A stretch of DNA of 64,000 nucleotides from Dictyostelium discoideum (lineage: Eukaryota), in the NCBI GenBank assembly GCA_000004695.1, contig CM000155.2, positions 352,001-416,000 of the forward strand. The letters run 5' to 3'. Every line of letters starts with the position of its first letter. Positions within the stretch are counted from its first letter, which is position 1. The translations under genes were made by a program, and so were the position numbers. This document shows, piece by piece, positions 1 to 64,000 of this stretch. The notes below the pieces were generated by a model. The model was not told where the DNA came from. It did not search any database and saw only the letters and a list, made by a program, of their open reading frames with translations.

Positions 1-44
1 AATATTGAAAATCATACAACAAAACTGATAATATTAAAATAAAT

Positions 45-63
45 TAGTGGGATGTGTGTGTTG
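45..63 (+). promoter_or_regulatory. Conserved GT/G-rich promoter block ttagtgggatgtgtgtgttg upstream of Tgr-like copy 1. Copies recur at 4101..4121 and 7619..7637. It is a candidate G-box (GBF-type) element.
   Basis: The block is conserved about 330 bp upstream of each exon-1 ATG, while the surrounding sequence is nearly pure A/T. It is G/GT-rich like Dictyostelium G-box/CAE elements. Confidence 0.35.
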
Positions 64-151
64 AAAAACATTATTTAATAAATTATGTGATTGTTTATTT
101 TTAATTTAATATTGAAGCATTACCTTATTGTTTTTATTATTATTTTATTAT

Positions 152-196
<45 letters not shown>

Positions 197-395
197 TATC
201 AATATTTTTTTTTTTTTTAATTATTATTAATATTTATGTTTTTTTTTTAATTATTAATATTTTTGTTTTTATATATTATTTTAATTTTTATTTTTTTTTA
301 TTTTTTTTATTTCAAATCATTAACAGTAATAATAAATTATTTAACATCCTCAAAAAAACAATTTCATAATTAAAATAATAAATAGTAAATCAAAA

Positions 396-559
396 ATGAA
401 ATTTATTATATTATTTTTTATTTTATATTTAGTTTCTGATACATTAGGATCTTTAAATGAACCAGTTGTCAAGAGTAAATATTTTAAATATAAATATAAT
501 TTAATTTTTTTTTTTTATTGTTTTTATTGTTTGGGTTATTTTTATTTCTCAAATTTAAT

Positions 560-621
<62 letters not shown>

Positions 622-3592
622 TTTGAATTATATTTGTTATTTACTATTTTTAATTTTTTAATATTAAAGTCTCCAAATATTCAGCTATTGTTTATTTTTT
701 ATATCATTGTTAATGTCATTAATAACTATAACTAGTTATTAATATAAATAAAAATCAATCATTTTGTAGATATATTATCTATTTATGTATTTTATAAGAT
801 ATTGATAATTTCCAACACTAATTTTTAATTTTTTGTTTGGTTCATTATTATTTTTTTAAAAATTGTTCAATGTTTTAACCACTTTTCAATGTAATTAAAG
901 ATATTTGCAATTGTTTATTAAAAAAAAAAAAAAAAATTGTTTGTTATTTTATTAAAAAAAAAAGAGCTACTGTTCATTTTTTAATAAATTAATTTTAAAT
1001 CAATATCTATAACAATTGATATTAATAAATAATAATCATTTAATAGATACATTATCTATATTTTTTGTAATTTTTTTAAAAAGAAATCAATAGTTTCCAA
1101 CACTAATTTTTTCTTATGATTTTATTTTAATTTCAGATTTTACATGCACAAAACAATCATTGGAATATACATATGATATTGATAGTACATATTATACAAA
1201 ATGGATTTTTTCAGATTTGGAATATGAATTGGTTTTTGAATGTAAAAATAATAGCAAAGAAAGAACATGTACTGCTGGTATGTCCATTGATATTGCTAAA
1301 AATTTACATGGTCAAATAAAGATGTGCGGAACTGATAATAATAGTGTATTAGATTGCCATTCGAATTACGAAGAATATTATCCAAAGCCAATTATTGAAG
1401 GTGACTTTAAACCATCTACCAAAGGTGGTCCTACTATTATGAAAGGTTATTATTTGGCAGTTGGTGCATACTACTATAACATTATCCCTTATACTAGATT
1501 GGGTATTATAGGTGATGTTCATAGTAACTCTATAGATGTCACAAATTTAATACTAGACTATAAAGGTGGTTGTGGCCCAAGAACTATTCAATGGCCAAAT
1601 GATTTTAAATATAGTTTCAATCATTCAAATCCAATCATTGAAAATATTTTTATTGAAGGTTCATCTTTTATATCAAAAGGTTCTAATTTTTGTAATTCTT
1701 CTGATTCAATTCAAATTTATTTAGATGGTGTTCAAATTGATAAATCAAAAATAAAATCAATTGATCATGAGCAGTTTGAAATAATTTACACTCAACTATA
1801 TTCAAAATCAATCAATGTTAAAATAGTATCTGGTGGACTTGAATCGAATATTTACAAATTGGATTTTAAACCTATACCTTTAAAAATTAATAGTGTTCCA
1901 AGATTAAAAGGTGGTTCAATTACAATAATTGGTGAAAGACTATCTTCACAAGTAAATAATTCAACAATCATTGTTAAAATTGGTCAATATGATTGTAAAA
2001 ATGTAATCTCATCAAAAAATGAAATTCTCTGTAATTTAGAATCGGTTCCAAATGTTGAAAAAGTTAAATTGGTAGATTTACAAGTTAATATCTCAATAAA
2101 TGGTATTTTTAATGAAAATAATTTATTATTCTCATTCGATATACCAATAATATCAGATTTTATACTTCCACAAGGTGAAGTTAAATTAGTTGGTGATTGT
2201 TTTGGTTCTTCACAATTGACTCAAGTTAAAATTGACGATGTATTACAATCCAATATAACAATTAATATTAATGAAAAAGAAACAACACTTTCATTTAAGC
2301 CAATTAAACCAATTAAAAAATCAAAGTTATATATAATTGTCAATGGTACAAAATCAAATACTATTGAAATTGATTCATCATTTTTTGTAAAAAGTGTTCC
2401 ATCTTCACCTTCAGTAAATGGTCAAATTGTAAACTTTACTCTTTTCAATATAAATCCAAATAATGTTAATGCAACACCAATTATGATTTTTCAAGATAAT
2501 AGTTCAATAAAAGCAATTGATTATAAAAATTCAAATGAATACTCAACTCACACATACTCTTTTGATATTCCAAAAAGTTGTGGGAGAAATGAAATTACAA
2601 TTTTAATTGGAGACCAACTAACCCGTACTGAAATTTATTATGAATTACCAATAATATCAAGTTGTTCAATTGTTTCAAATCAAATGATTAAATGTCTTGG
2701 TAATTTTTTAAATTATTTAGATTTATTTAAAAATGGTAAAATTAAAATACAATTTTCAAATATGGTAATAATTGATAATATTCCAAACAATCCAATTATT
2801 TTTATGAGTGATTCATTTTCATTCCCAATGAAGCCAGAGTATAGTTCAAGTGATATATATCTTATTGTTTGTGATGAAACTTCTCTAGATTTTAAAGTTG
2901 ATATAACTCCATCGCTTAAATTTGTGAGCCAATCTCTTGTTTTCAACTCCACTGGTGGTGAATTATTAATTAATGGTGAAAACTTAAATGAAAATACAAT
3001 TTACAATACATCTGTATATTGCTTTTCAAATAAACAAGTTTATAATTGTTCATTTATAAACAATACATCTATATCATGTGATATTGAATTGTTAGGTCCA
3101 TTCGATCAACTTTGTAAAATCAAATTTAATAGTAAAGATGAGAATAATAACATTTCAATATCATATTATCCTCCATTAGTTTTAAATTCAACAACGATTT
3201 CAAAATCATCAACTGGTGGAATTATTACTATTTTTGGTAATGAATTTTATAATCAAATTGATTCAATTACAGTTGGTAAAAGTAAATGTTTAAACTCTAC
3301 ATTTATAAATTCAACATCGATTTCATGTTTTGTAGAACCTTCAAATTTTAATATTAACCAAACTGAACAACAAAAAAAACAATATGTTAACATTATAATT
3401 AATGGTAAAAGTGGTGGTAATAATTTAATAATTTATTCTGGTAATTCAAATAGAATTGATGAAAATAACAAATCAAATAAAAATACAATTGACGAAAAAC
3501 AAACCAATAATGAAATCAAAAATGAATCTATTAAAAGAAATATAAATTTTATATTATTTATAATTATATTCTCAACAATTTTAATCATATAA
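396..3592 (+). CDS. IPT/TIG-domain cell-surface glycoprotein, Tgr(tiger)-family-like, copy 1. Model is join(396..474,1137..3592), about 844 aa. It has a signal peptide, several IPT/TIG repeats, many N-x-S/T sites and a hydrophobic extreme C-terminus, so it looks GPI-anchored or secreted.
   Basis: Exon 1 encodes [26 protein letters not shown], a signal peptide. The donor is AAGA|GTAAAT at 474/475 and the acceptor is tttcag| at 1136, with phase 1 preserved. IPT motifs follow the P..G..GGxITI.GxxF...V.xG...C pattern ([15 protein letters not shown]...[35 protein letters not shown]). The protein ends [17 protein letters not shown]. Confidence 0.85.
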
Positions 3593-4010
3593 TTTAATTT
3601 ATTAATTTCATTGTAAAAAAAAAAAAAAATAAAACTCCAACCAAAAACAATTATTGGGTATATATAAAAAATGATTATTTTTGGTGGGTTAAAAATAAAA
3701 TATAATACAATAATAAATTTTGAACTTATTTTTTTTTTTTTATTTTTTGATAATTTTTTTTTTTTTAATTATTTTTAAAATAATTATTTTTTTGTTTTTA
3801 CTATTTGATAAGTGTGATTGTGAATATTAATAATTTAAATAAAATATAAAATTAAAAATGATTAAAAATATAACCACTTATCATAAAATACTTTTTTTGG
3901 CAGTGGTTGAAAAAAAAAAAAAAAATAATAATATTCATTTCAATTAAAAAAAACACATCCAAAAAAGTTTAATAAAAAATAAATAGTATTCTAAAATGAT
4001 GAAAGAAACA

Positions 4011-4043
4011 CCAATTGGTGGGTGTGGTAAACTTGACACAGTG
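4011..4043 (+). promoter_or_regulatory. Second conserved G-rich block ccaattggtgggtgtggtaaacttgacacagtg (copy at 7523..7553) about 390 bp upstream of the copy-2 and copy-3 starts
   Basis: GGTGGGTGTGG core. It is retained in both inter-copy spacers despite the AT-rich, indel-rich surroundings. Confidence 0.35.
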
Positions 4044-4398
4044 TTTAATAAACATGATGAGTAATATTGAAAATCATACAACAAAACTGATAAAAATAAA
4101 TTAGTGTGGGAGTGTGTGTTGAAAAACATTTTTCAATAAATTATTTGATTGTTTTTTTTTAATTTACTATTGAAGCATCGTTACCTTAATTTTATTATTA
4201 TTATTATTATTATTTTTTTTTTTCTTTAATATTTTTTTTAATTATTATTATAATTTTTATTTTTTTTAATTATTAATATTTTTGTTTTTATATTTTTTTA
4301 ATTATTAATATTTTTTATTTTTTTATTTCAAATCATAAATTATTTAACATCCTCAAAAAAACAATTTTAATATTAAAATAATAATAGTAAATCAACAA

Positions 4399-4451
4399 TG
4401 AAAATTATTATATTTTTTTTTATTTTATATTTATTTTCCGATACATAAGGA
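4399..4451 (+). pseudogene. Disrupted signal-peptide exon of Tgr-like copy 2. It has an in-frame TAA (TTA to TAA) and a 9-nt deletion relative to copies 1 and 3.
   Basis: Copy 2 reads atgaaaattattatattttttttt...tccgatacaTAAggatctttagttgtcaagagtaaatat. Copies 1 and 3 read ...gatacaTTAggatctttaaatgaaccagttgtcaagagtaaatat. Confidence 0.6.
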
Positions 4452-4649
4452 TCTTTAGTTGTCAAGAGTAAATATATAAATTAAAATAATTTTAATTTTT
4501 TTTAGTTTTCATTATATCTATATGTACAAAATATATATGTGTCTTAGATAATCATTGAATAGATACATTATTTATATTTTGTATTTTTTTAAAAAGAAAT
4601 CAATGGTTTCCAACTCTAATTTTTTCTAATATTTACATTTTAATTTCAG

Positions 4650-7105
4650 ATTTTACATGCACAAAACAATCATTGGAATATACATATGATATCGATAGTA
4701 CATATTATACAAAATGGATTTTTTCAGATTTGGAATATGAATTGGTTTTTGAATGTAAAAATAATAGCAAAGAAAGAACATGTACTGCTGGTATGTCCAT
4801 TGATATTGCTAAAATTTTACATGGTCAAATAAAGAAGTGCGGAACTGATAATAATAGTGTATTAGATTGCCATTTGAAATACGAAGAATATTATCCAAAG
4901 CCAATTATTGAAGGTGACTTTAAACCATCTACCAAAGGTGGTCCTACTATTATGAAAGGTTATTATTTGGCAGTTGGTGCATACTACTATAACATTATCC
5001 CTTATACTAGATTGGGTATTATAGGTGATGTTCATTGTAACTCTATAGATGTCACAAATTTAATACTAGACTATAAAGGTGGTTGTGGCCCAAGAACTAT
5101 TCAATGGCCAAATGATTTTAAATATAGTTTCAATCATTCAAATCCAATCATTGAAAATATTTTTATTGAAGGTTCATCTTTTATATCAAAAGGTTCTAAT
5201 TTTTGTAATTCTTCTGATTCAATTCAAATTTATTTAGATGGTGTTCAAATTGATAAATCAAAAATAAAATCAATTGATCATGAGCAGTTTGAAATAATTT
5301 ACACTCAACTATATTCAAAATCAATCAATGTTAAAATAGTATCTGGTGGACTTGAATCGAATATTTACAAATTGGATTTTAAACCTATACCTTTAAAAAT
5401 TAATAGTGTTCCAAGATTAAAAGGTGGTTCAATTACAATAATTGGTGAAAGACTATCTTCACAAGTAAATAATTCAACAATCATTGTTAAAATTGGTCAA
5501 TATCATTGTAAAAAGGTAATCTCATCAAAAAATGAAATTCTATGTAATTTAGAATCGGTTCCAAATGTTGAAAAAGTTAAATTGGTAGATTTACAAGTTA
5601 ATATCTCAATAAATGGTATTTTTAATGAAAATAATTTATTATTCTCATTCGATATACCAATAATATCAGATTTTATACTTCCACAAGGTGAAGTTAAATT
5701 AGTTGGTGATTGTTTTGGTTCTTCACAATTAACTCAAGTTAAAATTGACGATGTGTTACAATCTAATATAACAATTAATATTAATGAAAAAGAAACAACA
5801 CTTTCATTTAAGCCAATTAAACCAATTAAAAAATCAAAGTTATATATAATTGTCAATGGTACAAAATCAAATACTATTGAAATTGATTCATCATTTTTTG
5901 TAAAAAGTGTTCCATCTTCACCTTCAGTAAATGGTCAAATTGTAAACTTTACTCTTTTCAATATAAATCCAAATAATGTTAATGAAACACCAATTATGAT
6001 TTTTCAAGATAATAGTTCAATAAATGCAATTGATTATAAAAATTCAAATGAAAACTCGACTCACACATACTCTTTTGATATTCCAAAAAGTTGTGGGAGA
6101 AATGAAATTACAATTTTAATTGGAGACCAACTAACCCGTACTGAAATTTATTATGAATTACCAATAATATCAAGTTGTTCAATTGTTTCAAATCAAATGA
6201 TTAAATGTCTTGGTAATTTTTTAAATTATCTAGATTTATTTAAAAATGGTAAAATTAAAATACAATTTTCAAATATGGTAATAATTGATAATATTCCAAA
6301 CAATCCAAATATTTTTATGAGTGATTCATTTTCATTCCCAATGAAGCCAGAGTATAGTTCAAGTGATATATATCTTATTGTTTGTGATGAAACTTCTCCA
6401 GATTTTAAAGTTGATATAACTCCATCGCTTAAATTTGTGAGCCAATCTCTTGTTTTCAACTCCACTGGTGGTGAATTATTAATTAATGGTGAAAATTTTA
6501 ATGAAAATACAATTTACAATACATCTGTATATTGCTTTTCAAATAAACAAGTTTATAATTGTTCATTTATAAACAATACATCTATCTCATGTGATATTGA
6601 ATTGGTAGGTCCATTCGATCAACTTTGTAAAATCAAATTTAATGGTAAAGATGAGAATTATAACATTTCAATATCATATTATCCTCCATTAGTTTTAAAT
6701 TCAACAACGATTTCGAATTCATCGATTGGTGGAATTATTATAATTTTTGGTAATGAATTTTATAATCAAATTGATTCAATTACAGTTGGTAAAAGTAAAT
6801 GTTTAAACTCTACATTTATAAATTCAACATCGATTTCATGTTTTGTAGAACCTTCAAATTTTATTATTAATCAAACTGAACAACAACAACAACAATATGT
6901 TAACATTACAATTAATAACAAAAGTGGTGGTAATAATTTAATAATTTATTCTGGTAATTCAAATAGAATTGATGAAAATAATAAATCAAATAAAAATACA
7001 ATTGATGATAAACAAACCAACAATGAAATCAAAAATGAATCCATAAAAAGAAATATAAATTTAATTTTATTTATAATTATATTCTCAACGATTTTAATCA
7101 TTTAA
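4650..7105 (+). CDS. Tgr-like IPT/TIG glycoprotein copy 2, main exon. Acceptor is tttcag| at 4649. It is 97-98% identical to copy 1 and has the same hydrophobic C-terminus. Because the upstream signal-peptide exon is broken, this is a possible pseudogene or a product lacking a signal peptide.
   Basis: The ORF 4673..7105 begins at an in-frame TTG. The reading frame stays open back to the acceptor at 4650. Alignment to copy 1 is nearly gap-free. Confidence 0.7.
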
Positions 7106-7943
7106 TTAAATTTATTACTTTCGTTATAAAAAAAATTATACTCCCACCAAAAACAATGATTGAATATATATAAAAAATGATTATTTTTAGTGGTTTTGTG
7201 TTAAATAAAAAAAAAAAAAATACAATAATAAATTTTGAACATGTTGTTTTTTTTTTTTTATATTTTTTTTTTTTTCTAATTATTTTTATAATAATTATTT
7301 TTTTGTTTTTGCTATTTGATAAGTGTGTTATTGTGAATTTTGATAATTAAAATAATATATAAAATCAAAAATAATTAAAAATATAACCACTTCTCATAAA
7401 CTACTTTTTATGGTAGTGGGTGAAAAAAAAAAAAATAATAATTTTCATTTCAATTAAAAAAAACAAGCCTAAAAAATTTTAATACAATTAATAGTTTTCT
7501 AATATGATGAAAGAAACATCAAGTGGTGGGTGTGGTAAACTTGGCACACAGTGTTAAAAAAAAACAATATGAGTAATTTTGAAAATCATACAACAAAACT
7601 GATAATATTAAAATAAATTAGTGGGATGTGTGTGTTGAAAAACATTATTTAATAAATTATGTGATTTGTTTATTTTAATTTAATATTGAAGCATTACCTT
7701 ATTGTTTTTATTATTATTTTTTTTTTTTTTTTTTTTTTTTTTTATTATTATCAATATTTTTTTTTTTTAATTATTATTAATATTTATGTTTTTTTAATTA
7801 TTAATATTTTTGTTTTTATATATTATTTTAATTATTATTTTTTTATTATTTTTTTTATTTCAAATCATTTACAGTAATAATAAATTATTTAACATCCTCA
7901 AAAAAACAATTTCATTATTAAAATAATAAATAGTAAACCAAAA

Positions 7944-8105
7944 ATGAAATATATTATATTATTTTTTATTTTATATTTAGTTTCTGATACATTAGGATCT
8001 TTAAATGAACCAGTTGTCAAGAGTAAATATTTTAAATATAAAAATAATTTTATTTTTTTTTTTTTATTGTTTTTACTGTTTGGGTTATTTTTATATCTCA
8101 AATTT

Positions 8106-8151
<46 letters not shown>

Positions 8152-11100
8152 TTTGATTATTGTTGTTATTTACTATTTTTAATTTTTTAATATTAAAGTC
8201 TCCAAATATTCAGCTATTGTTTATTTTTTTATATCATTGTTAATGTCATTAATAACTATAACTAGTTATTAATATAAATAAATATCAATCATTTTGTAGA
8301 TATATTATCTATTTATGTATTTTATAAAAGATATTGATAATTTCCAACACCAATTTTTAATTTTTTTATTTGGTTCATTAATATTTTTTTAAAAAATTTT
8401 CAATGTTTTAACCACTTGTCAATGTAATTAAAGATATTTGCAATTGTTTATTAAAAAAAAAAAAAAAAAAAAAATTGTTTGTTATTTTTTTAAAAAAAAA
8501 AAAAAAGAGCTACTGTTCATTTTTTAATAAATTAATTTTAAATTAATATCTATAACTATTAATATTAATAAATATTAATCATTTATTAGATACATTATCT
8601 CTATTTTTTGTATTTTTTTAAAAAGAAATCAATGGTTTCCAACACTAATTTTTTCTTATGATTTTATTTTAATTTTAGATTTTACATGCACAAAACAATC
8701 ATTGGAATATACATATGATATTGATAGTACATATTATTCAAAATGGATTTTTTCAAATTTGAAATATGAATTGGTTTTTGAATGTAAAAATAATAGCAAA
8801 GAAAGAACATGTACTGCTGGTATGTCCATTGATATTGCTAAAAATTTACATGGTCAAATAAAGATGTGCAGAACTGATAATAATGGTGTATTAGATTGCC
8901 ATTCGAATTACGAAGAATATTTTCCAAAGCCAATTATTGAAGGTGACTTTAAACCATCTACCAAAGGTGGTCCTACTATTATGAAAGGTTATTATTTGGC
9001 AGTTGGAGTAATTCCTTACTTTACTATTATCCCTGATACTATATTGGGAACAATAGGTGATATTTTTAGTAACTCTATAGATGTCACAAATTTAATACTA
9101 GACTATAAAGGTGGTTGTGGCCCAAGAACTATTCAATGGCCAAATGATTTTAAATATAGTTTCAATCATTCAAATCCAATCATTGAAAATATTTTGATAG
9201 AAGGTTCATCTTTTATATCAAAAGGTTCTAATTTTTGTAATTCTTCTGATTCAATTCAAATTTATTTAGATGGTGTTCAAATTGATAAATCAAAAATAAA
9301 ATCAATTGATCATGAACAATTTGAAATAATTTACACTCAACTATATTCAAAATCAATAAATGTTAAAATAGTATCTGGTGGACTTGAATCGAATATTTAC
9401 AAATTGGATCTTAAACCTATACCTTTAAAAATTAATAGTGTTCCAAGATTAAAAGGTGGTTCAATTACAATAATTGGTGAAAGACTATCTTCACAAGTAA
9501 ATAATTCAACAATCATTGTTAAAATTGGTCAATATGATTGTAAAAATGTAATCTCATCAAAAAATGAAATTCTCTGTAATTTAGAATCGGTTCCAAATGT
9601 TGAAAAGGTTAAATTGGTAGATTTACAAGTTAATATCTCAATAAATGGTATTTTTAATGAAAATAATTTATTATTCTCATTCGATATACCAATAATATCA
9701 GATTTTATACTTCCTCAAGGTGAAGTTAAATTAGTTGGTGATTGTTTTGGTTCTTCACAATTGACTCAAGTTAAAATTGACGATGTGTTACAATCCAATA
9801 TAACAATTAATATTAATGAAAAAGAAACAACACTTTCATTTAAGCCAATTAAACCAATTAAAAAATCAAAGTTATATGTAATTGTCAATGGTACAAAATC
9901 AAATACTATTGAAATTGATTCATCATTTTTTGTAAAAAGTGTTCCATCTTCACCTTCAGTAAATGGTCAAATTGTAAACTTTACACTTTTCAATATAAAT
10001 CCAAATAATGTTAATGCAACACCAATTATGATTTTTCAAGATAATAGTTCAATAAAAGCAATTGATTATAAAAATTCAAATGAATACTCAACTCACACAT
10101 ACTCTTTTGATATTCCAAAAAGTTGTGGGAGAAATGAAATTACAATTTTAATTGGAGACCAACTAACCCGTACTGAAATTTATTATGAATTACCAATAAT
10201 ATCAAGTTGTTCAATTGTTTCAAATCAAATGATTAAATGTCTTGGTAATTTTATAAATTATCTAGATTTATTTAAAAATGGTAAAATTAAAATACAATTT
10301 TCAAATATGGTAATAATTGATAATGTTCCAAACAATCCAATTATTTTTATGAGTGATTCATTTTCATTCCCAATGAAGCCAGAGTATAGTTCAAGTGATA
10401 TATATCTTATTGTTTGTAATGAAATTTCTCCAGATTTTAAAGTTGATATAACTCCATCGCTTAAATTTGTGAGCCAATCTCTTGTTTTCAACTCCACTGG
10501 TGGTGAATTATTAATTAATGGTGAAAATTTTAATGAAAATACAATTTACAATACATCTGTATATTGCTTTTCAAATAAACAAGTTTATAATTGTTCATTT
10601 ATAAACTATACATCTATCTCATGTGATATTGAATTGGTAGGTCCATTCGATCAACTTTGTAAAATCAAATTTAATGGAAAAGATGAGGAGTATAACATTT
10701 CAATATCATATTATCCTCCATTAGTTTTAAATTCAACAACGATTTCGAATTCATCAATTGGTGGAATTATTACAATTTTTGGTAATGAATTTTATAATCA
10801 AATTGATTCAATTACAGTTGGTAAAAGTAAATGTTTAAACTCTACATTTATTAACTCAACATCAGTTTCATGTTTTTTAGAACCTTCCAAAATTATTATT
10901 GATCAAAGCAAACAACAACAGCAACAACAACAACAACAACAACAATATGTTAACATCACGATTAATGGTAAAAGTGGTGGTAATAATTTAATTATTTATT
11001 TTGATAATTCAATTATTGAAGTTAAAAACCAATCAAGCCAAAGTGATAAAAACAACAACAACAACAACAACAACAATGGTAAAAATATAAATAATGGTGA

Positions 11101-11863
11101 TAGTAAAACTGATGGTAGAAGTTTTTATGAAAAAAATAAAAAATGGATAACAGTATTAATAATAATTGGAAGTTTGGCATTACTTTTATTTATCTTTTTT
11201 GGTATAATTTATTGTAATAGAAAAAACGGTACTGTTATCTATTGGAAATATATTATGTGTCGCGGAATCAAAGAAAAAAAATATAAATTTAAAAATAGAA
11301 AAGAGATAAAACAAATACAAGAATTAAGACATACATTGGATAATGCAGAGACAATTTTTGCTGACTTTGAATTAGATAATATAATAACTTATTCAGAGTA
11401 TCAACTTACACCCGAAAATCGTCTACGAAAAGAACAACAAGAATTAGCTCGAGAAAATTATATTGAAACTTACCCAGATTATTATTTACATATAAATAAA
11501 ACTAAAAATTTACCAAATAATGATTCATTACCTCCAAATCAAGTTGAAAATTTACCAAATAATAATTCATTACCTCCAAATAAAATTGAAAATTCATTAC
11601 CTCCGAATCAAACTGAAAATTTACCAAATAATAATTCATTACCTCCAAATCAAACTGAAACATTACAAGAAGATTCTTTACCTCCAAATCAAACTGAAAC
11701 ATTACCAGAAGTTTCATTACCTCCAAATCATATTGAAACATTACCAGAAGTTTCATTACCTCCAAATCAAATTGAAACATTACCAGAAGTTTCATTACCT
11801 CCAAATCATATTGAAAAACTAACAGACAATTCATCATCATCTCAAGACCCAAGCTCTTCATAA
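7944..11863 (+). CDS. Tgr-like IPT/TIG type-I transmembrane glycoprotein, copy 3, full length. Model is join(7944..8022,8679..11863), about 1087 aa. After the ectodomain it has polyQ and polyN linkers, a TM helix ([23 protein letters not shown]) and a roughly 230-aa cytoplasmic tail with eight SLPPNQTE-type repeats.
   Basis: Exon 1 is identical in structure to copy 1, with donor GTAAAT at 8023 and acceptor ttttag| at 8678. The ORF 8702..11863 continues through the TM segment. A basic stop-transfer run (CNRKNG) follows the TM. Confidence 0.85.
11500..11830 (+). repeat. Coding tandem repeat of 39-42 nt, about 8 units, encoding (N/T)LP(NNN/EV)SLPPN(Q/H)(T/I)E in the cytoplasmic tail of copy 3
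   Basis: aatttaccaaataataattcattacctccaaatcaaactgaa recurs with small substitutions. Both alternative frames also stay open (ORFs 11502..11861 minus and 11520..11822 plus), which is typical of a repeat. Confidence 0.9.
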
Positions 11864-12299
11864 TTTTTTAAAAAATAAATAAATAAATAAATAAATAAAG
11901 AAATAAAGAAATAAATAAATAAATAAATTTCTTTTAAAAATAATATTAAAAAATGGAAAATTGTATTGAAAAAAAAGAAAACTATCAATTTAAAAGATAT
12001 TCCTGTTTTAAATTTTTATTTTTTTTTTTTTTTTTTTATTCTTATAAAATTTATATTTCTATTGATTAAAATCTTCCCTTACCACCTTGTTCCATACCAT
12101 TCATGTTATACATTCATACCACCTTTGATTCATAGCATGATATCATTCATACAATTTTGATTGAAACCACCCATACCTTGATTGATCATAATTCCTCCAT
12201 TGAAACGTTAATTCATCATTTGTTGTGGTCTCATTGTTGGAATGGTTGAACCTGCTGAAGTAATTGGATGTGCTGGTAGTTGTATGAATGTGTGTATGT

Positions 12300-12335
<36 letters not shown>

Positions 12336-12420
12336 CAAAATTTCAAAATAGTAAAAAATAATAATTACTGTTTTATAATTTAAATAATTATTACATGTAT
12401 TATTATTTGTCGTTTGTTGA

Positions 12421-12462
<42 letters not shown>

Positions 12463-12469
12463 GGAATTT

Positions 12470-12513
<44 letters not shown>

Positions 12514-12585
12514 GAAAAAAAAAAAAAAAAAATTAATTTCCATTTGAAAAAATTCCAACAATTAAATTTAATTTTTATTTATTAT

Positions 12586-12635
<50 letters not shown>

Positions 12636-12637
12636 TT

Positions 12638-14239
12638 ATGTCATATAATGGTATTGGAATAAAGACAGCAAGAGGTACAGGTACAAATGGTTATGTACAA
12701 AGAAATTTATCATATGTTAATACAAATTATAATAAAACTGAATATAGTATAAAAAAAGAAAGAGAATCAATTCTTGAACAACAAAAAAAACAACAATCAC
12801 AACCAATTAAAAAAGCAAATTTAGAATTAATTGAACATAATAGAAAAAGAAGAATTGAAGTTGAAATTGCACAATGGGCAGAAGAAAATGATTTATATGA
12901 AAAATATAAAGATCAAGAAGAATTGGATGCATTATTAGCAAAGAAAAGAGAAGAATTATTAGAGAAACAACAACAACAACAACAAAATAATAATAATAAT
13001 AATACCACTGAAGAAGAAGAAGAGGATGGGCAATATTCAAAACTAACAGATTCACATTCAAAACAATATCAAAAAGAAAAAGAGATAAAAAGATTCACAG
13101 ATGCATTAAACATTAAAGATTATATACCTGGTGCTTCTTTAGATAAGCAAGTTCAACAAGAACGTAAAGAAAAAAGACATCAAGAATATTTAGAAAGACA
13201 AAAAGAAAGAGAAAGAAAACAAAAAGAACATGAAAAACTTGAAAGAGATAGACAAAGAGAATACGATAGAAGAAGTAGAGATTCAGATAGAGATATTGAT
13301 AGATATAAAAGTACTAAAGATAGAGATAGAGATAGCGATAGAGATAGACATAGAGACAGAGACAGTGATAGATATAGAAGTAGTAGAGATAGTAGAGATA
13401 GTAGAGGTAGTAGAGATAGTAGAGATAGTAGAGATAGTAGAGATATTAGAGGTAGTAGGGATAGTAGGGATAATAGAGATAGTAGAGATAGAAGATATAG
13501 ATCTCGTAGTCGTTCAAATTCTCCTTCTTATTCAAAATCAACATCCCCAAGTAAGAGAGATAGAGATAGAAAGTCATATAGAGATCGTTCAGATTCAGAG
13601 TCATCATCAAGTAGTAGAGAAAGAGATCGTTCACATTCAATATCACCAAAAAGAGAAAAGAATACAACAACAACAACAACAAAAACAGCAATAAAGGAGA
13701 GATCAGTTTCTCCACCAAATATTGCTAGAAACAGATCACCACCACATAGAGATAGAGGTAATAAAAAAGAAGAAGAGGGGGATAAATCAATGTCACCACC
13801 AAGAAATAGAAGTGGTAGAAATAGATCGCTTTCACCATCACAATCACCAGCAATAAAAAGAAGTGTTAAAAAAGATGAAGAGGAGGATAAATCAATGTCA
13901 CCACCAAGAAATAGAAGTGGTAGAAATAGATCACTTTCACCATCGCAATCACCAACAATAAAAAGAAGTGTTAAAAAAGATGAAGAATCAATGTCACCAC
14001 CAAGAAATAGAGTTGGTAGAAATAGATCACTTTCACCAGCAATAAAAAGAAGTGTTAAAAAAGAAGAAAAGGAAGAAGAATCAATGTCACCACCAAGAAA
14101 AAGAAATAAAGATGATGAGGAGGAGCAGGAGGAGGAAGAGGATCTGAGATCAATATTTCCTTCAAGAAAAAGACAAAACACTCAAGACCATGAATCACCA
14201 CAAAGAAAAAGACTCGATTCTTCCTCTGATACTGATTAA
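12638..14239 (+). CDS. SRRM2/Cwc21-family splicing-associated protein. It has an N-terminal cwf21 motif and an RD/RS-rich domain.
   Basis: The N-terminus MSYNGIGIKTARGTGTNGYVQRNLSYV matches the conserved MYNGIGLxTPRGSGTNGYVQRNLS start of SRRM2/Cwc21. (RDS/RSR)n and SPPRNRSGRNRSLSP repeats follow. It is a single exon. Confidence 0.85.
   Translation: MSYNGIGIKTARGTGTNGYVQRNLSYVNTNYNKTEYSIKKERESILEQQKKQQSQPIKKANLELIEHNRKRRIEVEIAQWAEENDLYEKYKDQEELDALLAKKREELLEKQQQQQQNNNNNNTTEEEEEDGQYSKLTDSHSKQYQKEKEIKRFTDALNIKDYIPGASLDKQVQQERKEKRHQEYLERQKERERKQKEHEKLERDRQREYDRRSRDSDRDIDRYKSTKDRDRDSDRDRHRDRDSDRYRSSRDSRDSRGSRDSRDSRDSRDIRGSRDSRDNRDSRDRRYRSRSRSNSPSYSKSTSPSKRDRDRKSYRDRSDSESSSSSRERDRSHSISPKREKNTTTTTTKTAIKERSVSPPNIARNRSPPHRDRGNKKEEEGDKSMSPPRNRSGRNRSLSPSQSPAIKRSVKKDEEEDKSMSPPRNRSGRNRSLSPSQSPTIKRSVKKDEESMSPPRNRVGRNRSLSPAIKRSVKKEEKEEESMSPPRKRNKDDEEEQEEEEDLRSIFPSRKRQNTQDHESPQRKRLDSSSDTD
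13786..14100 (+). repeat. Three copies of an intragenic repeat of about 110 nt (SMSPPRNRSGRNRSLSPSQSPAIKRSVKKDEEE) within the SRRM2-like CDS
   Basis: Repeated nucleotide blocks beginning gataaatcaatgtcaccaccaagaaatagaagtggtagaaatagatc... Confidence 0.8.
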
Positions 14240-17673: not shown

Positions 17674-20427
17674 TTATGATTTTCCAAAAAATAAGGATTT
17701 TCTCTTATTAATTGTTTCTTTATCTTTTTGACTAGATAATGATGGTGATCGAGTTGAATTTGTTGAATTTGAAGATGAAAGAGATGAAGTTGAAGAGACT
17801 GAATTATTGTCGACAATATGAGAAAGATGTGGTGGTGATGATGAAGTTGGTAATTGTGTGTCACTTTCTTTAAAGTTTGGATTTGACTTTGAAGATTGTA
17901 AATTTGAACCTTCCTGACTATTACTTAAACTACTAGGATTACTTGAATTATTTGATGATGATGATGTTGAATCAACCAAACCTTTAGTTGGGGGGGGATT
18001 ATTATTATTATTATTATTATTATTTACACTTGAATTTAAATTATTTTCTTTTTCTTTTTCTTTTTCTTTTTCTTTTCCTTTTCCTTTTCCCTTTTCTTTT
18101 TCTTTTTCCTTTTCTTTTTTAACGGATACATTATTTGTTGGTGGTGGTTGTTCTTTTTCTTTTTCTTTTTCTTTTTCTTTTAATTTCTTTTCTTGATCAG
18201 CTTTTTTCTCTTGTTCAGCTTTTTCAATTTTTTCTAATTTCTTTAAATATTTTTCATTCTTTTTAGTCATTTCTTTCTTTTCTTTCTCTAATCTCTTTTC
18301 ACGTTCTTTATTTTCTTTATCGATTTTAGTTAATGATTTTGAACTTGTATTCTTTCTTTCCAATGTTTTTGGTGAATTTGTAAGATATACAGGTGTTGAT
18401 GGGAATTGCATAATATCATTAATATTATCTTTATTACCACCAGTGGTGGTGGTGGTGGTAGTAGCAGTGGTAGTAGCAGTGGCAGAGTTATTATTAGTTG
18501 ATGATGATAAATTTGAAGTTGAAGCTAAAGCATGTTGTTGATCAGGTGTAAGGAAAAAGTTTGCACCCAATTTTGCCATTGATGATTTTGAAGTGGTTGC
18601 AGTACCACTAACAATAATATCTTGACTACTTGTTGAACGATTAAATGATGCACCAAAAGTATTACCATGAGTTGAATGTGCATTTGTTTGAATATTCATT
18701 GCAGTTAATGAATTTGTTGATGATGCTTGCTCTGTTGTATTTGGTAATAATTCTAAAGAACTCTCTGGTGTTGTTGTTGTTGTTGTTGTCATTGTTGCTG
18801 CTAATCTATCATTATTATTACCATTATTACCACCCATATAATTTAACATTATATCACCACCCATTTTCATACCACCATTCTTTTTCATACGAATTGTTTT
18901 ATACATTCTTTGATTATTTGATTTAGTAGTTGTAGTTGTAGTAGTAGTAGTAGTATTTGTTGAAGATGCATCACTACCTTGTGAAGAAATTGATTCAACT
19001 GATGGATCTGGTTTTAATTTACCTTCTTCATATTCTGGTGATGATGGTACTGAAATAGCATTATTATTATTACTATTATTATTATTGGTTGTATTTGTAG
19101 TTGTATTACCACCCTGCACAATTGGTGAAGAAACTTCAGAAGTTGAAGCAGCTGGAGTTTGTTGTGAAATCGTTTGAGTATTTGAATTTGATACAGTTGC
19201 TGTACCTCCAACATTACCACTTGTTTGTTGTTGTTGTTGTTGCTGTTGTTTTGAAGTTAATAATTCTTTTAATGCTTGTAATTCTTGTTGTAATAATTTT
19301 GAATTCTCTTTTTCATCATCTAATAATGATAAAGTTTCATGATGTGAAGAGATTAATTCTTTCATTCTTGCAACTAAATTATCGGCTGTTTTCTTATTCA
19401 ATTCTGATTTCTTTCTCTCCTCTTCCAATAACATCGATGTCTTATGATGATTATTCTTTTCATCAGTGACAGAGCCCTTCAAAGAGTTGATTTCAAACAT
19501 TGCATTCTGATCCAACTGTCCACCATTCTTTTCAGCGAATCCAATTATCTTTCTACCTTGGAATAAAAGATTATCCAAATTTTGTAATCTCTCTTTCTCT
19601 TGATTCAATTGTTGTTGTGTATCTGATAATTGTTTTTTCAATTGTACAATTAATACTTGATCTGCTGCAGATCCAGTAGTGGTGGTATTACCACCACTAC
19701 TACCAGTACTATTGTTGTTGTTGTTTGTAATATTTGAAATTTCAGTATTATAAGATTCTAATTTTTGATTTAATAAAATTTGTTCATTTAAATTTAATTG
19801 AGTTTTTTGGTGAAGTTGTCTCTCTTTTTCCAATTCTTTCTCCAAGAGTGAATTTGATTCTTCGATATGAGTGATTTCGTTCATTAGAGTTTGTAAATTG
19901 TTTATGTTTTCTTTGGAGATGGTTTGTTTCTCTTTGTCCAATTGCTCACATTCCAATATTACAATCTCCAATTGTTTGGTGAGATTCTCTTTCTCGGCTT
20001 CTGTCTCTTTATAGATTTCAAATAATTCCAGTTTAGTGTTTTTCTCTTGTTTTAATTGTGCTTCTAAAATTTGTCTTTCCTCTTCAACAGTCTGTTTATA
20101 GACTGTGATTTGCTCAACTAGACTATTGACTGTCTCTTTGGTATCCAACACTCTTGATTTCTCTTTCAACAATTTCATCTTCAAATTCTTTACTTCTGCT
20201 GAATCTTCATTTTGAATTTGAACACATGATAAATCAAATGAATCTGAATCTGAATCTGAGTCTGAATCTGAATCTGATGATGATGATGATGATGATGAGT
20301 CCTCTTCTTCATCCTCTTCCTCCTCTTCCTCCTCGTAACTATCTTCATCTAATTTTGATTTTATAACATTTTCAACATTATTAATGTTGTTCTCTTCTTC
20401 ATCCTCTAAATTATTATTATTGTTCAT
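17674..20427 (-). CDS. Large low-complexity coiled-coil protein. It has an acidic N-terminus with an (SD)n run, central heptad-rich coiled coils, S/T/N/Q-rich segments and a KEKEKE/GKGKGK tract.
   Basis: A 917-aa ORF with EEEEEEDEEED, DSDSDSDS and long charged heptad regions (LKMKLLKEKSRVLDTKETVNSLVEQITVYKQTVEEERQILEAQLKQEK...). The frame stays open upstream to about 21040 without an ATG, so a 5' exon or extension is possible. Confidence 0.7.
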   Translation of the reverse strand: MNNNNNLEDEEENNINNVENVIKSKLDEDSYEEEEEEEDEEEDSSSSSSSSDSDSDSDSDSDSFDLSCVQIQNEDSAEVKNLKMKLLKEKSRVLDTKETVNSLVEQITVYKQTVEEERQILEAQLKQEKNTKLELFEIYKETEAEKENLTKQLEIVILECEQLDKEKQTISKENINNLQTLMNEITHIEESNSLLEKELEKERQLHQKTQLNLNEQILLNQKLESYNTEISNITNNNNNSTGSSGGNTTTTGSAADQVLIVQLKKQLSDTQQQLNQEKERLQNLDNLLFQGRKIIGFAEKNGGQLDQNAMFEINSLKGSVTDEKNNHHKTSMLLEEERKKSELNKKTADNLVARMKELISSHHETLSLLDDEKENSKLLQQELQALKELLTSKQQQQQQQQTSGNVGGTATVSNSNTQTISQQTPAASTSEVSSPIVQGGNTTTNTTNNNNSNNNNAISVPSSPEYEEGKLKPDPSVESISSQGSDASSTNTTTTTTTTTTKSNNQRMYKTIRMKKNGGMKMGGDIMLNYMGGNNGNNNDRLAATMTTTTTTTPESSLELLPNTTEQASSTNSLTAMNIQTNAHSTHGNTFGASFNRSTSSQDIIVSGTATTSKSSMAKLGANFFLTPDQQHALASTSNLSSSTNNNSATATTTATTTTTTTGGNKDNINDIMQFPSTPVYLTNSPKTLERKNTSSKSLTKIDKENKEREKRLEKEKKEMTKKNEKYLKKLEKIEKAEQEKKADQEKKLKEKEKEKEKEQPPPTNNVSVKKEKEKEKEKGKGKGKEKEKEKEKENNLNSSVNNNNNNNNNPPPTKGLVDSTSSSSNNSSNPSSLSNSQEGSNLQSSKSNPNFKESDTQLPTSSSPPHLSHIVDNNSVSSTSSLSSSNSTNSTRSPSLSSQKDKETINKRKSLFFGKS

Positions 20428-23866: not shown

Positions 23867-24214
23867 TTTAATTAAATTCTAATATTACTTTAATCTTTAG
23901 AAAAACAATAATTATTGGTATTATTTTGAATTTATTTATTAATAATTATTGGTGGTATAATTATAAATTTATTTATTAATAAAATAACTGGCTATAATAC
24001 GAAAACCAATCCCCATAATATAATATAATATAATATATAAATGATGTTTATAAAAATTACTTTTTTTTTTTTTTTTTTTTTTTTTAATTGGGTTTATAAT
24101 TTTATATTATAATCTAAAAATACTATTGTTATATTAAATTGCTGATATCGAAAAAAAAAAAAAAAAAAAAAAAATGCGAAAAAAAGGTTATAAAAAAAAA
24201 AAAAAAAAAAAAAT

Positions 24215-24262
<48 letters not shown>

Positions 24263-24633: not shown

Positions 24634-25962
<1,329 letters not shown>

Positions 25963-29634: not shown

Positions 29635-31021
29635 TTAAAATCTTCCAGCTTGGTAGTCTTTAAAAGCTTGTTGAATTTCAGCTTCAGTATTCATAACGAA
29701 AGGACCATATCTTGCAACGGGTTCATTCAATGGTTTACCAGCTACTAATAAAAAACGTACACCTTGATCTGAATCACCAGCGATAACATCGATTCTATTT
29801 CTATCCTGACCACCTTGTAAAATACCAATTTGTGAGGTTTTAACTTCTTTTCCTTTTGCCTTTGGACCGAATCTAGCAGACCCTTCAAAAACGTAAACAA
29901 AAGCTTGATGATCATTTGGAATCTCTTCTGAAAATGTTGAACCTGGTGATAACTTAACATCTAAATATAATGGATTCGTTACGATTCCAGCGATTGGACC
30001 TGTAATATTTTTATAAACACCTGCAATAATTCTAGTTTTACCTCCACCCTGTTCATCAACTTCAGGTATATCTTTAGCGGGAATATCTTGATAACGTGGT
30101 TCCATCATTTTATGAGATTTTGGTAAATTTACCCAGAGTTGAAATCCCCAAACCACCTTATCACGATCAACAATTGGCATTTCTGAATGAATTATACCTT
30201 TACCAGCCGACATCCATGACACAGAATTTGCTTTTAATAATCCATAATTATGTTTATGATCTTTATGCTCCATAGTACCTCTTAACATATATGTTACAGT
30301 TTCAAATCCTCTATGAGGATGTGATGGAAATCCTGCTATATATTGATTTGGATCATCACTTTTTTTTTTTTTTTTTTTTTAATTATTAATAATTTTATTT
30401 GATTTAATTTAATTTATAAAAAAATAAATATTAAAATTTATTATTTACCTTTTAAATTCATCTAATAATAAAAATGGATCCAAGTCACTTATTGGTCCAC
30501 CAATAATTCTTCTTAATTTTACTCCTAAATTAAAAAAAAAAAAAAAAAAAATGGGATTAGTGGTTTTTCCTAAAAAATAAAAAAAAAATAAAATAATTAC
30601 CAGCTCCATCTGAAGTCATCATTCCAGTACTAACTTTACTAACTATTCTTGAACTCATTTCTATAATATTATTATTTTTATTTATATCCTCTTCTTCTTT
30701 AATTTTATTATTATTATTATTATTATCTTTTAATTTTTGTTTTTTATTATTTAATAAATTAATATTATTAATATTATTATTATTATTATCCTTTTTATTA
30801 TTATTACTATTATTATTTAATGGTTTAAAAGTATTTTGTTGTTCTTGTTGTTGTTGTTGTTGTTCTTGTTCCCTTTGCTGTTGTTGTAAATATGTAGTTG
30901 TGGTTGTAGTTGTTGAAGATAAAAAATAATATAGTAAAGAGGCTATTACAATTATAAAGATAATAGTATATTGATTTTTATATTTATTATTATTTGTTCG
31001 GTTATGTTTATGAGAAACCAT
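29635..31021 (-). CDS. Pirin (bicupin). The core model is join(30601..30658,30449..30524,29635..30358), 285 aa starting MSSRIVSKV. The frame stays open upstream to an ATG at 31021, which would add about 120 aa with a hydrophobic segment and a Q/N-rich linker (a longer-isoform hypothesis).
   Basis: LDPFLLLDEFK|...|SDDPNQYIAGFPSHPHRGFETVTYML...WMSAGKGIIHSEMP...LWVNLP...GPFVMNT matches human pirin (DPFLLFDEFKGG..GFPDHPHRGFETVSYLL...WMTAGRGILHAEMP..LWVNL...GPFVMNT). Donors are GCTG|GTAATT at 30600 and AAAAG|GTAAAT at 30448. Acceptors are atttag| at 30525 and aaaaag| at 30359. Exon lengths of 58, 76 and 724 nt keep the frame. Confidence 0.85.
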
Positions 31022-38600: not shown

Positions 38601-39662
38601 ATGCCAATAATGCTTATGAATATATAAATCCAGTTAAACAATGTTCAATTCCAAATTGTAATAATCATGGTACATGTAATCAAAATACAGGTAAATGTGA
38701 ATGTAGTAAACCATATAGTGGCTATGATTGTTTAGCTTTTGACCAAGCAAATTCAGGAGGTACTACCACATCACCATCAACACAACCACCTATTGCAATA
38801 CCAGAATCAAAACCAGTTATTAATACTACAACAGGTTCAGCAGAAATTACAAATGAACAAACCAATTATAAAATATTATTAAAATCAATTGTTGAATTAG
38901 ATTTTTCAAATAATGTAGTTTTTGAATATATATTGGATGGAAAATGGTCACTTTCAGCTTCAAAAAATGGTGATTCAGTTGTAACAAATTTCACACAAAC
39001 CATTAATAATACAACTAAAATAACTTCGAGTATTGAAGATTTATCATCAGATAAGAATTTTACATTTGCAGGTATTGATTTCACTGTTAAAAGTGGATCT
39101 GTTAAAGTATCTGTTGAAATTTTAAATTGGTCATTCTTAAATTCATTAAATACACTTCAATTAAGAATGGAATCATTAGTTTCAAATGATGGTGATGATA
39201 AAAATAATATAAATAAATGTAATTTAGAAAATGATGAAACTAATGTATCAAGTGATCAAAATCCACTTCAATTTAATAGTAATTTAAATAATGTTAAAAT
39301 TGAAAGGAATGCTAAAATTCTATACGGTAGATTCTTAAATAGAGCATTATCAGATGGTAGACCAACATTCATAACAAATCAAATCGTATCAAATTCATCA
39401 AATTCGTTAATAGTAGGCATTAACCTACCACATTGTAACAGCGAATGTGTAATTGATCCAGACTTTTCAGTATTAGTTTCATCAGATTTTAAATCTGCAG
39501 ATTCTTGTTCTCCTCATTCCGAAGACTCCAATAGAAAGTGGGTATTACCAGTTTCAATTGTTGTCAGTGTTGTAGGTGCTTCTCTTATTGTCATTATTAG
39601 TGTTATGATTTATCGTAAGAATAGAACAAAAATTAAAATTGGAATTTCAAAATTAAAAATAA

Positions 39663-39673
<11 letters not shown>
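35673..39673 (+). CDS. Type-I membrane protein with a signal peptide, leucine-rich repeats, tandem EGF-like cysteine repeats and a C-terminal TM. Six-exon model with exons at about 35673..35920, 36050..36172, 36283..36556, 36655..36816, 36921..37219 and 37311..39673.
   Basis: Exon 1 encodes the signal peptide (MGKNK...LFLIIINLFLKTASA). Introns are bounded by GT(A/G)(A/T)GT...(a/t)ag. LRR-like motifs include LTHNNLTGVIPIK and DLSNNQYIGRLD. EGF-like repeats include CKNNCSGNGVCLAASSLCVCNAGFSGEDC and CNNHGTCNQNTGKCECSKPYSGYDC. The TM is VSIVVSVVGASLIVIISVMIY followed by RKNRTK. The ORF-track start at 37289 lies inside intron 5. Individual exon edges may be off by ±10 nt. Confidence 0.6.
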
Positions 39674-41608: not shown

Positions 41609-41643
<35 letters not shown>

Positions 41644-63900: not shown

Positions 63901-64000
63901 ATTTTAAATAATAGTAATAATAGTCAATAACCACCAATAGTTCAAATAGTGCACACCAAGCGATAACAAAAATTCATCGAATGAAAAACACAATCACGCA

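Follow-up and report, generated by a model that had tools for sequence, protein, structure and literature searches.

The window, which is the whole 64-kb stretch of DNA analysed and is part of chromosome 6 of Dictyostelium discoideum AX4, carries at positions 1-11863 three head-to-tail units of the tgrA subfamily (units A, B and C; Table 1), all on the + strand. Judged by its sequence, unit A is tgrA2, unit B is an unnamed tgrA pseudogene and unit C is tgrA3, and both intact genes are already annotated. Very probably, these units represent the distal end of the chromosome 6 tgrA cluster, with a history of recent duplication and sequence exchange and a role as surface proteins. Because the units are annotated tgrA genes of a cluster with published duplication, the observation recorded in the preliminary description of this DNA is correct but ordinary. 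As a discovery, it is of little weight: the reference annotation already names these genes, and work on the subfamily's dynamics appeared in 2025.

The exons of unit A, when spliced in silico, encode exactly the 844-aa protein XP_635224, and those of unit C encode exactly the 1087-aa protein XP_635226; the 1053-aa ORF of unit C shows 100% identity to the latter AX4 protein. The N- and C-termini of XP_635224 and XP_635226 agree with the printed translations of tgrA2_Ax4 (DDB_G0291666) and tgrA3_Ax4 (DDB_G0291668) in the supplement of Holland et al. 2025 (10.1101/2025.08.01.668227), and no difference was found between these AX4 genes and units A and C. No protein matching unit B was present in the AX4 protein set returned by the searches. 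The exon-2 ORFs are open in all three units (810, 810 and 1053 codons in A, B and C, respectively). The ATG-to-ATG spacing is 4002 nt from A to B (396 to 4398) and 3546 nt from B to C (4398 to 7944), and the stop-to-stop unit lengths of B and C are 3513 and 4758 nt. Scans of the whole 64-kb window for tRNAs and Rfam families yielded no match.

Table 1. Features of the three tgrA units at the start of the window.
Feature	Position	Strand	Remarks
Unit A (tgrA2) 5' intergenic region/promoter	1..395	+	96-99% identical to 7575-7943 upstream of unit C
tgrA2 exon 1, signal peptide	396..474	+	In-silico splice gives XP_635224; hydrophobic N-terminal segment
tgrA2 intron, 662 nt, GTAAAT...TTTCAG, run of 63 T	475..1136	+	
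tgrA2 exon 2, ectodomain and 14-residue hydrophobic C-terminal tail (short form, 844 aa in total)	1137..3592	+	
Unit B degenerate exon 1	4398..4467	+	ATG kept; TAA at 4446-4448; 9-nt deletion
Unit B intron remnant, 182 nt, splice-site consensus kept	4468..4649	+	About 480 nt missing relative to A and C
Unit B exon-2 homologue, short-form C-terminus	4650..7105	+	Open 810-aa ORF at 4673-7105
Unit C (tgrA3) intergenic region and promoter	7106..7943	+	
tgrA3 exon 1, signal peptide MKYIILFF...	7944..8022	+	In-silico splice gives XP_635226
tgrA3 intron, 656 nt	8023..8678	+	
tgrA3 exon 2, ectodomain, transmembrane helix and cytoplasmic tail (long form, 1087 aa in total)	8679..11863	+	
39-42-nt tandem repeats in tgrA3 tail, eight LPPN(Q/K/H)(V/I/T)E motifs	11494..11834	+	TRF

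In each unit, a small exon for the signal peptide is followed by a single intron and a large ectodomain exon. The ectodomain is a cysteine-containing, heavily N-glycosylatable string of Ig-like and IPT/TIG beta-sandwich domains. Membership of the Tgr family, which had been proposed in the preliminary description, was borne out by profile searches in all three units. PF01833 (TIG) scored 46.5, 41.8 and 44.4 bits in units A, B and C (curated cut-off, 20.9), and PF24612 (Ig_TgrO1) scored 115.2, 108.6 and 108.1 bits (cut-off, 27.9), with two stretches in each unit. The corresponding E-values for Ig_TgrO1 and TIG are 1.6e-33 and 3.8e-12 in unit A and 1.8e-31 and 1.1e-10 in unit B. The AF2 model of tgrA2 is all-beta, with its sandwich domains arranged as a string (mean pLDDT, 78), and Foldseek returned FMG1B, plexin IPT domains, MET and contactins for it. 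As the model is a flexible rod of several domains, these matches have low TM-scores, and the fold comparison therefore supports the domain type rather than any specific homologue. When tgrA2 was searched against PDB sequences, no entry reached E<=1, and relatives were detected by fold comparison only.

The earlier suggestion that members of the array differ in topology was also correct. Hydropathy indicates a hydrophobic N-terminus, specified by the separate exon 1, in units A and C but not in unit B, where this exon is interrupted by a stop at codon 17. In tgrA3, a hydrophobic transmembrane segment (residues about 849-871) is followed by a repeat-rich tail of ~215 aa, the repeats of which have a period of 39 with 6.3 copies and 88% matches in TRF. 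Units A and B end in only a 14-residue hydrophobic C-terminus with no cytoplasmic part, which would be either a GPI signal or a short anchor; from the shape of the C-terminus, the short tail of tgrA2 is a putative GPI-anchor signal. Some members of the Tgr family are known to lack a transmembrane domain (bioRxiv 10.1101/2025.10.22.684067). These proteins are candidate cell-surface adhesion or contact molecules in multicellular development, and the long form could signal via its tail.

Although all three units had been described as genes with a conserved signal-peptide exon, this does not hold for the middle unit. Alignment revealed a TAA at codon 17 of exon 1 of unit B, where units A and C read TTA, in addition to the 9-nt deletion. 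Because the signal-peptide exon stops at codon 17, unit B is unable to make a secreted protein. By our reading of the DNA, unit B is a pseudogene despite its open exon 2, and it should be treated as such and not as a third gene. The same lesion is present in both units of the 856/857-type in the long-read assembly described below, where the automatic 857-aa model of unit B has no signal peptide. In new long-read assemblies, the automatic models of disabled units (856, 857 and 963 aa) are artefacts of intron read-through or frameshift bridging. We also considered an exon 1 of unit B without an ATG, but this was rejected, as the alignment places the ATG at 4398.

The claim of at least three near-identical tandem units was confirmed by the identity analysis. 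A self-BLAST of the window, in which percentages include gap columns, aligned 1-3449 with 7575-11012 (94.8% over 3487 columns), 1032-4503 with 4548-8061 (93.7%) and 4549-6962 with 8576-11012 (95.7%). In a three-way MAFFT alignment, exon 2 is 94-100% identical per 200 columns in all unit pairs, and units A and C are 96-99% identical in the 5' intergenic region, exon 1 and the intron. However, the non-coding part of unit B shows 83-94% identity and lacks ~480 nt of the intron. Therefore, the value of about 97% that had been given for all parts of the units applies to the coding DNA and to the comparison of A with C, but not to the non-coding DNA of unit B. The homology of unit C to A and B stops at 11012. 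A remnant of the long-form 3' end was sought past the break of the short form, but no homology was detectable between 3455-4062 and 11020-12640 (local alignment score, 189; mean of 50 shuffles, 185; maximum, 212).

Near-identical repeats are difficult to assemble, and short reads are known to cross-map among tgr paralogues (bioRxiv 10.1101/2025.10.22.684067). It is thus conceivable that the three copies are an assembly artefact, in which one gene was expanded or copies were misjoined. The difference in copy number that may exist at the locus points in the same direction: the AX4 annotation names tgrA1, tgrA2 and tgrA3, and eight units are present in a long-read assembly, GCA_054883475.1 (contig JBTAPE010000005.1). 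However, the copies differ by 2-6% and have unit-specific structures, namely the intron deletion and nonsense codon of unit B and the distinct 3' end of unit C. Furthermore, the three units recur in unchanged order in this independent assembly, with each paralogue-specific coding variant present, and the differences between it and positions 1-13630 of the window are limited to 4 mismatches and 9 homopolymer indels, all of which are non-coding. For these three units, an artefact is accordingly so improbable that it can practically be disregarded.

The long-read assembly is most likely that of AX2-214 of Holland et al. 2025, as indicated by its near-identity to AX4 and by an eight-gene array matching the AX2 gene tree in the supplement. 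Its eight tgrA units lie in a row on one strand, and five of them are located upstream of the position corresponding to base 1 of the window, in agreement with the earlier surmise that the array may extend in this direction. Because this assembly contains all units of the window and five more upstream, the window begins mid-array, and its copies are not products of assembly. Base 1 lies 468 nt 3' of the stop of the preceding tgrA pseudogene (long-read segment positions 9617 versus 9149). The match to the window comprises the final three units and the downstream gene, which encodes the same 533-aa protein in both sequences; the window covers only three of the eight units. The predicted proteins of the long-read array are, in order, 846, 963, 844, 856, 963, 844, 857 and 1087 aa, and half of the units are disabled. 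The exonic length of tgrA1 (2541 nt, or 846 aa plus the stop) is equal to that of the 846-aa predicted protein. The array also contains a higher-order repeat of 11.4 kb, with 99.3% identity over 14.2 kb. The copy number of the AX4 reference at the tgrA locus is worth checking against long reads, because read mapping to tgrA and expression estimates depend on it.

The proposal of recent duplication, gene conversion or both agrees with the divergence data. The dS values between copies are 0.03-0.06, and the informative sites of exon 2 form a mosaic: the pattern is AB|CJ at thirteen sites in nt 76-1314 and then changes to AC|BJ at three sites in nt 1386-2102, and none of the 18 sites private to unit A lies before nt 1116. 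The units therefore arose via recent tandem duplication and have since exchanged sequence, as shown by the shifting relationships among copies along exon 2. Exchange probably proceeded through unequal crossing-over and gene conversion, with birth-and-death dynamics as described for the tgr family. Prolific duplication of tgrA genes has already been described by Holland et al. 2025 and by Polo Prieto et al. 2025 (see bioRxiv 10.1101/2025.10.22.684067 and PMC12745789). The disabled units may serve as gene-conversion donors into the expressed tgrA2 and tgrA3, forming self-diversifying surface-protein cassettes, with the AX4 reference being short of one 11.4-kb higher-order repeat, but we consider this combination unlikely. 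The mosaic sites indicate past exchange involving unit B and are silent on its direction, rate and benefit.

Pairwise dN/dS values, which compare paralogues, are 0.45-0.55. The differences are concentrated in codons 61-140 of exon 2, where pN/pS is 0.5-0.9 and dN/dS is at most ~1, compared with a pN/pS of ~0.1 in the middle of the exon (small counts). Neither per-region pN/pS nor lineage-private counts, which are likewise small, gave a significant signal of positive selection, and no region is clearly >1. The lineage-private substitutions do not depart significantly from the neutral expectation in any copy. Together with the dN/dS of ~0.5, these private changes are compatible with weak constraint even on the intact copies. 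They also fit another explanation, that the array is largely dispensable DNA in neutral birth-and-death turnover, acting mainly as a conversion reservoir for other tgrA copies. The disabling of four of the eight long-read units, the movement of sequence between copies including pseudogene unit B, and the mostly low or undetectable expression of tgr genes other than tgrB1, tgrC1 and tgrM1 reported for clonal AX4 development are in line with this explanation. However, the codon frames of tgrA2 (844) and tgrA3 (1087) are intact with correct splice sites, pairwise dN/dS is below 1, tgrA homologues have been kept across the sampled Dictyostelium species, and tgrA3 and tgrA1 transcripts have been reported at 9 h of development in QS33. 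We regard this explanation as a somewhat doubtful, minority possibility, and prefer the interpretation of a recently duplicated cluster that encodes putative surface proteins.

The preliminary description had further presented the array as a candidate new recognition module. As units A and C are the annotated tgrA2 and tgrA3 and both the cluster and its duplication are published, the array is not new, and neither our data nor published accounts of tgrA, which state that TgrA, H, I and O have no known function (PMC12745789), provide evidence of a kin-recognition role for these genes. The units share with tgrB1 and tgrC1 a signal peptide, IPT/TIG and Ig E-set repeats, membrane attachment and developmental expression. 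If the array were a working allorecognition module of the same kind, the short and long forms would together make up a ligand-receptor pair whose specificity lay in the variable N-terminal patch; the membership of the same family, the two topologies, one with a cytoplasmic tail, the concentration of differences in codons 61-140 and the published transcription of tgrA3 and tgrA1 are compatible with such a role. However, tgrB1 and tgrC1 form a divergent pair, arranged head to head around a single promoter, with extreme polymorphism and proven ligand-receptor function, whereas the tgrA units are co-oriented, have their own upstream regions and are near-identical to each other. Because all units are on one strand, none of them are paired head to head around a common promoter. 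This layout of the three window units and the eight long-read units fits the same-strand arrangement described for the tgrA cluster (bioRxiv 10.1101/2025.10.22.684067). The dN/dS values and the proportion of pseudogenes given above also argue against an allorecognition module, and extreme polymorphism has been published as concentrated in the tgrBC cluster. Such a module is thus very unlikely, and the array is better regarded as part of the known tgrA cluster.

Two other members of the subfamily lie outside the window and the tandem array. tgrA4 (DDB_G0291514) resembles tgrA3, with which it shares 76% identity, in being a long form that has a transmembrane helix and a tail of PPNQ repeats. tgrA5 (DDB_G0274225), which is located on another chromosome, is ~50% identical.

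Self-comparison of the window (A+T content, ~78%) revealed three head-to-tail units, A, B and C, within the first 12 kb, an arrangement that is real and far beyond chance. The tandem array of near-identical units in the preliminary description was thus confirmed, both by this comparison and by the long ORFs and a three-way alignment of the units scored per 200-column block. In this alignment, the large exon is 94-100% identical in every pair of units, and the upstream region, first exon and intron of units A and C are 96-99% identical. The similarity of ~97% initially described is therefore real, but the figure needs qualifying, because the 5' part of unit B shows an identity of just 83-94% and has lost ~480 nt of the intron. 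Homology between units A/B and unit C ends at 3449/11012, past which the coding sequence of unit C continues for 850 nt with a 3' end of its own.

Features of the window and of the upstream array. L001 and L003 are stretches of the long-read assembly GCA_054883475.1; all other coordinates are window positions unless a contig is named.
Feature	Coordinates	Strand	Size or identity	Remarks
Self-match	1-3449 vs 7575-11012		94.8% identity	
Self-match	1032-4503 vs 4548-8061		93.7% identity	
Self-match	4549-6962 vs 8576-11012		95.7% identity	
Unit A long ORF	1160-3592	+	810 aa	
Unit B long ORF	4673-7105	+	810 aa	
Unit C long ORF	8702-11863	+	1053 aa	
tgrA3 tail tandem repeats	11494-11834		39-42 nt	encode LPPN(Q/K/H)(V/I/T)E motifs
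Protein gene	12638-14239	+	533 aa	rich in Arg, Ser, Asp
ORF	17674-20427	-	917 aa	most G+C-rich stretch of first 20 kb
Dispersed repeat	24047-24254 vs 61777-61557		77-84% identity (range for set)	some of set inverted
Dispersed repeat	25410-25650 vs 63756-63930 and 30664-30870		77-84% identity (range for set)	some of set inverted
ComC-like ORF	37289-39673	+	794 aa	EGF-like domains, one TIG (E=6e-7), ComC supersandwich (E=4e-57)
ABC half-transporter ORF	39713-41818	-		adjoins next
ABC half-transporter ORF	42023-43813	-		adjoins previous
Upstream stretch examined	JBTAPE010000005.1 272326-314613 (L001-L003)			upstream of window base 1; eight tgrA units
963-aa models	L001 13338-16853; L003 5631-9149		963 aa	two frameshifts bridged, without signal exon
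856/857-aa models	L003 2155-5261; L003 13573-16682		856/857 aa	intron remnant read through, without signal peptide

The large exons of units A, B and C matched Pfam TIG (PF01833) with 46.5, 41.8 and 44.4 bits (cut-off, 20.9 bits) and Ig_TgrO1 (PF24612), in two stretches each, with 115.2, 108.6 and 108.1 bits (cut-off, 27.9 bits), which bears out their assignment to the Tgr/TIG family; the refuting outcome named in the preliminary description, a lack of TIG matches, did not occur. In-silico splicing of unit A (396-474 joined to 1137-3592) yielded exactly the 844-aa XP_635224, and that of unit C (7944-8022 joined to 8679-11863) exactly the 1087-aa XP_635226; the 1053-aa ORF is itself 100% identical to this D. 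discoideum AX4 protein (XP_635226/EAL61818). The introns, with the boundaries GTAAAT...(T)TTCAG/TTTTAG, are 662 nt (475-1136) and 656 nt (8023-8678) in length, several times the usual length of Dictyostelium introns, and include stretches of 63 and 47 consecutive T, respectively. Holland et al. (10.1101/2025.08.01.668227, published as PMC12745789) list in their supplement the genes tgrA1 (DDB_G0291622), tgrA2 (DDB_G0291666), tgrA3 (DDB_G0291668), tgrA4 (DDB_G0291514) and tgrA5 (DDB_G0274225), and the translations given there for tgrA2, tgrA3 and tgrA4 match XP_635224 (P0005), XP_635226 (P0001) and P0003. In Table S3 of Polo Prieto et al. (bioRxiv 10.1101/2025.10.22.684067), the exonic lengths of tgrA1 (2541 nt, or 846 aa plus stop) and tgrA5 (2805 nt, or 934 aa plus stop) equal those of P0007 and P0023, whereas that of tgrA3 is 3267 nt versus 3264 nt for P0001. 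Taken together, the spliced products, printed translations and exonic lengths indicate that unit A is tgrA2 and unit C is tgrA3.

Unit B retains the ATG (4398) and the 5' splice site of the first exon. However, its codon 17 (4446-4448) is TAA, in contrast to TTA in units A and C, and the exon also carries a 9-nt deletion. No AX4 protein for unit B was found among the matches of the protein search, and the automatic 857-aa model in the long-read assembly (P0006) runs through the intron remnant and does not contain a signal peptide. These sequence features indicate that unit B is a pseudogene. Its second exon is still open over 810 codons, which is not surprising because unit B has accumulated just ~12 lineage-private codon changes. 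Of the three genes originally proposed, two, tgrA2 and tgrA3, stand.

P0007 (tgrA1) and P0005 map to contig JBTAPE010000005.1 of GCA_054883475.1, which is most likely an AX2-214 assembly because of its near-identity to AX4 and a gene series matching DD_AX2_00011982-11989 in the tree of Holland et al. This contig reproduces window positions 1-13630 except for 4 mismatches and 9 indels, which are confined to non-coding homopolymer tracts; therefore, the three copies are not an assembly artefact. The array in this assembly consists of eight tgrA units, with predicted products of 846 (tgrA1), 963, 844 (tgrA2), 856, 963, 844, 857 and 1087 aa (tgrA3) in this order, followed by the 533-aa gene of window position 12638. 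In the two 963-aa models, exon 1 is unrecognisable and exon 2 requires two frame changes, and the 856- and 857-aa models have a TAA exon 1 identical in kind to that of unit B. Thus, half of the eight units are disabled and half are intact, and the automatic gene models of the disabled units look artefactual. The stop codon of the second 963-type unit lies 468 nt upstream of window base 1; the window therefore starts mid-array, and the suspected upstream continuation is borne out by these further units. The array also contains a higher-order repeat of 11.4 kb, with 99.3% identity over 14.2 kb. In contrast to the eight units of the long-read assembly, the AX4 annotation names just tgrA1, tgrA2 and tgrA3 at this locus; either the AX4 Sanger reference is collapsed here or a duplication arose very recently in the other strain. 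Three tgrA homologues from other D. discoideum or D. cf. discoideum assemblies, P0002 (1595 aa), P0004 (1626 aa) and P0011 (1486 aa), are nearly twice the normal length and probably result from the fusion of adjacent array members in the gene models of wild-strain assemblies.

Pairwise Nei-Gojobori analysis of 765 codons shared by units A, B and C and tgrA1 gave dS values of 0.029-0.058, dN values of 0.013-0.028 and dN/dS ratios of 0.45-0.55. Differences cluster in two parts of exon 2: codons 61-140, which lie within and next to the first Ig_TgrO1 domain, and the final 165 of the shared codons. The N-terminal patch has a pN/pS of 0.5-0.9 versus ~0.1 for codons 141-450, and no region of exon 2 is convincingly above 1 in this paralogue comparison. 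Parsimony-informative sites are perfectly segregated, with 13 sites of the AB/CJ type (J being, by elimination, tgrA1) at nt 76-1314 followed by 3 of the AC/BJ type at nt 1386-2102, an order with a chance of 1 in 560. Furthermore, none of the 18 private sites of unit A lies before nt 1116 (p ~6e-6 under an even spread). The tgrA copies are therefore mosaics: sequence has been exchanged among them, the pseudogene included, presumably by unequal crossing-over or gene conversion, which supports the earlier proposal of recent duplication or ongoing gene conversion.

The array members also differ in topology, as had been suggested. In the short form, represented by tgrA2, tgrA1 and unit B, the common C-terminus ('...NESIKRNIN(F/L)' plus 13 residues) places a 14-residue hydrophobic stretch at the extreme end with zero cytoplasmic residues, resembling a putative GPI-attachment signal. 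In contrast, tgrA3 has a 23-residue helix followed by a tail of ~215 aa with eight LPPN(Q/K/H)(V/I/T)E motifs, a long design shared by tgrA4; a search for the long-form 3' end 3' of the short genes did not find it. There are 25 N-x-S/T sequons and 20 Cys in tgrA2 and 32 and 22, respectively, in tgrA3. For tgrA2, AlphaFold2 modelling with 19 homologues (mean pLDDT, 78) gave a structure that is all-beta from residue 27 to ~790. While a PDB sequence search with tgrA2 detected no relative, Foldseek matched the model to multi-domain Ig/IPT ectodomains in the PDB (Chlamydomonas FMG1B, plexin A4/A1 IPT domains, MET, contactins and cytokine receptors) with high probabilities but low TM-scores, as expected for a flexible rod.

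The locus, family, layout and dynamics have all been published already, and the array is thus known rather than the candidate new recognition module that had been envisaged. Holland et al. (PMC12745789) divide the tgr family into 20 subfamilies, with 38 genes and 26 pseudogenes in all, and describe TgrA, H, I and O as proteins of unknown function. During clonal development of AX4, expression is weak for most tgr genes; direct RNA from QS33 at 9 h gave 215 CPM for tgrA3, 133 for tgrA1, 76 for tgrA5 and 63 for tgrA4 (Polo Prieto et al., bioRxiv 10.1101/2025.10.22.684067). A kin-recognition role of the tgrA array is not supported and looks unlikely: the units form no head-to-head pair, comparison of the paralogues gave no hint of diversifying selection, and half of the larger array is disabled.

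The window contains a second TIG-containing surface protein, the 794-aa ComC-like ORF 25 kb downstream of the tgrA array, which is unrelated to the tgr units. The 533-aa protein showed no Pfam match at E<=0.1, and its N-terminus has what we take to be a resemblance to the Cwc21/SRRM2 N-terminal motif; its gene contains 96-105-nt tandem repeats (13762-14105) encoding SMSPPRNRSGRNRSLSP units. The 917-aa ORF had no Pfam match at E<=1e-5. The two ABC half-transporter ORFs resemble a tandem pair; in the second, the match to ABC_tran is partial, covering only profile positions 1-68 of 137, and this ORF is either intron-split or damaged. The short dispersed repeats of the window probably represent low-complexity coding sequence or AT-rich repeats.
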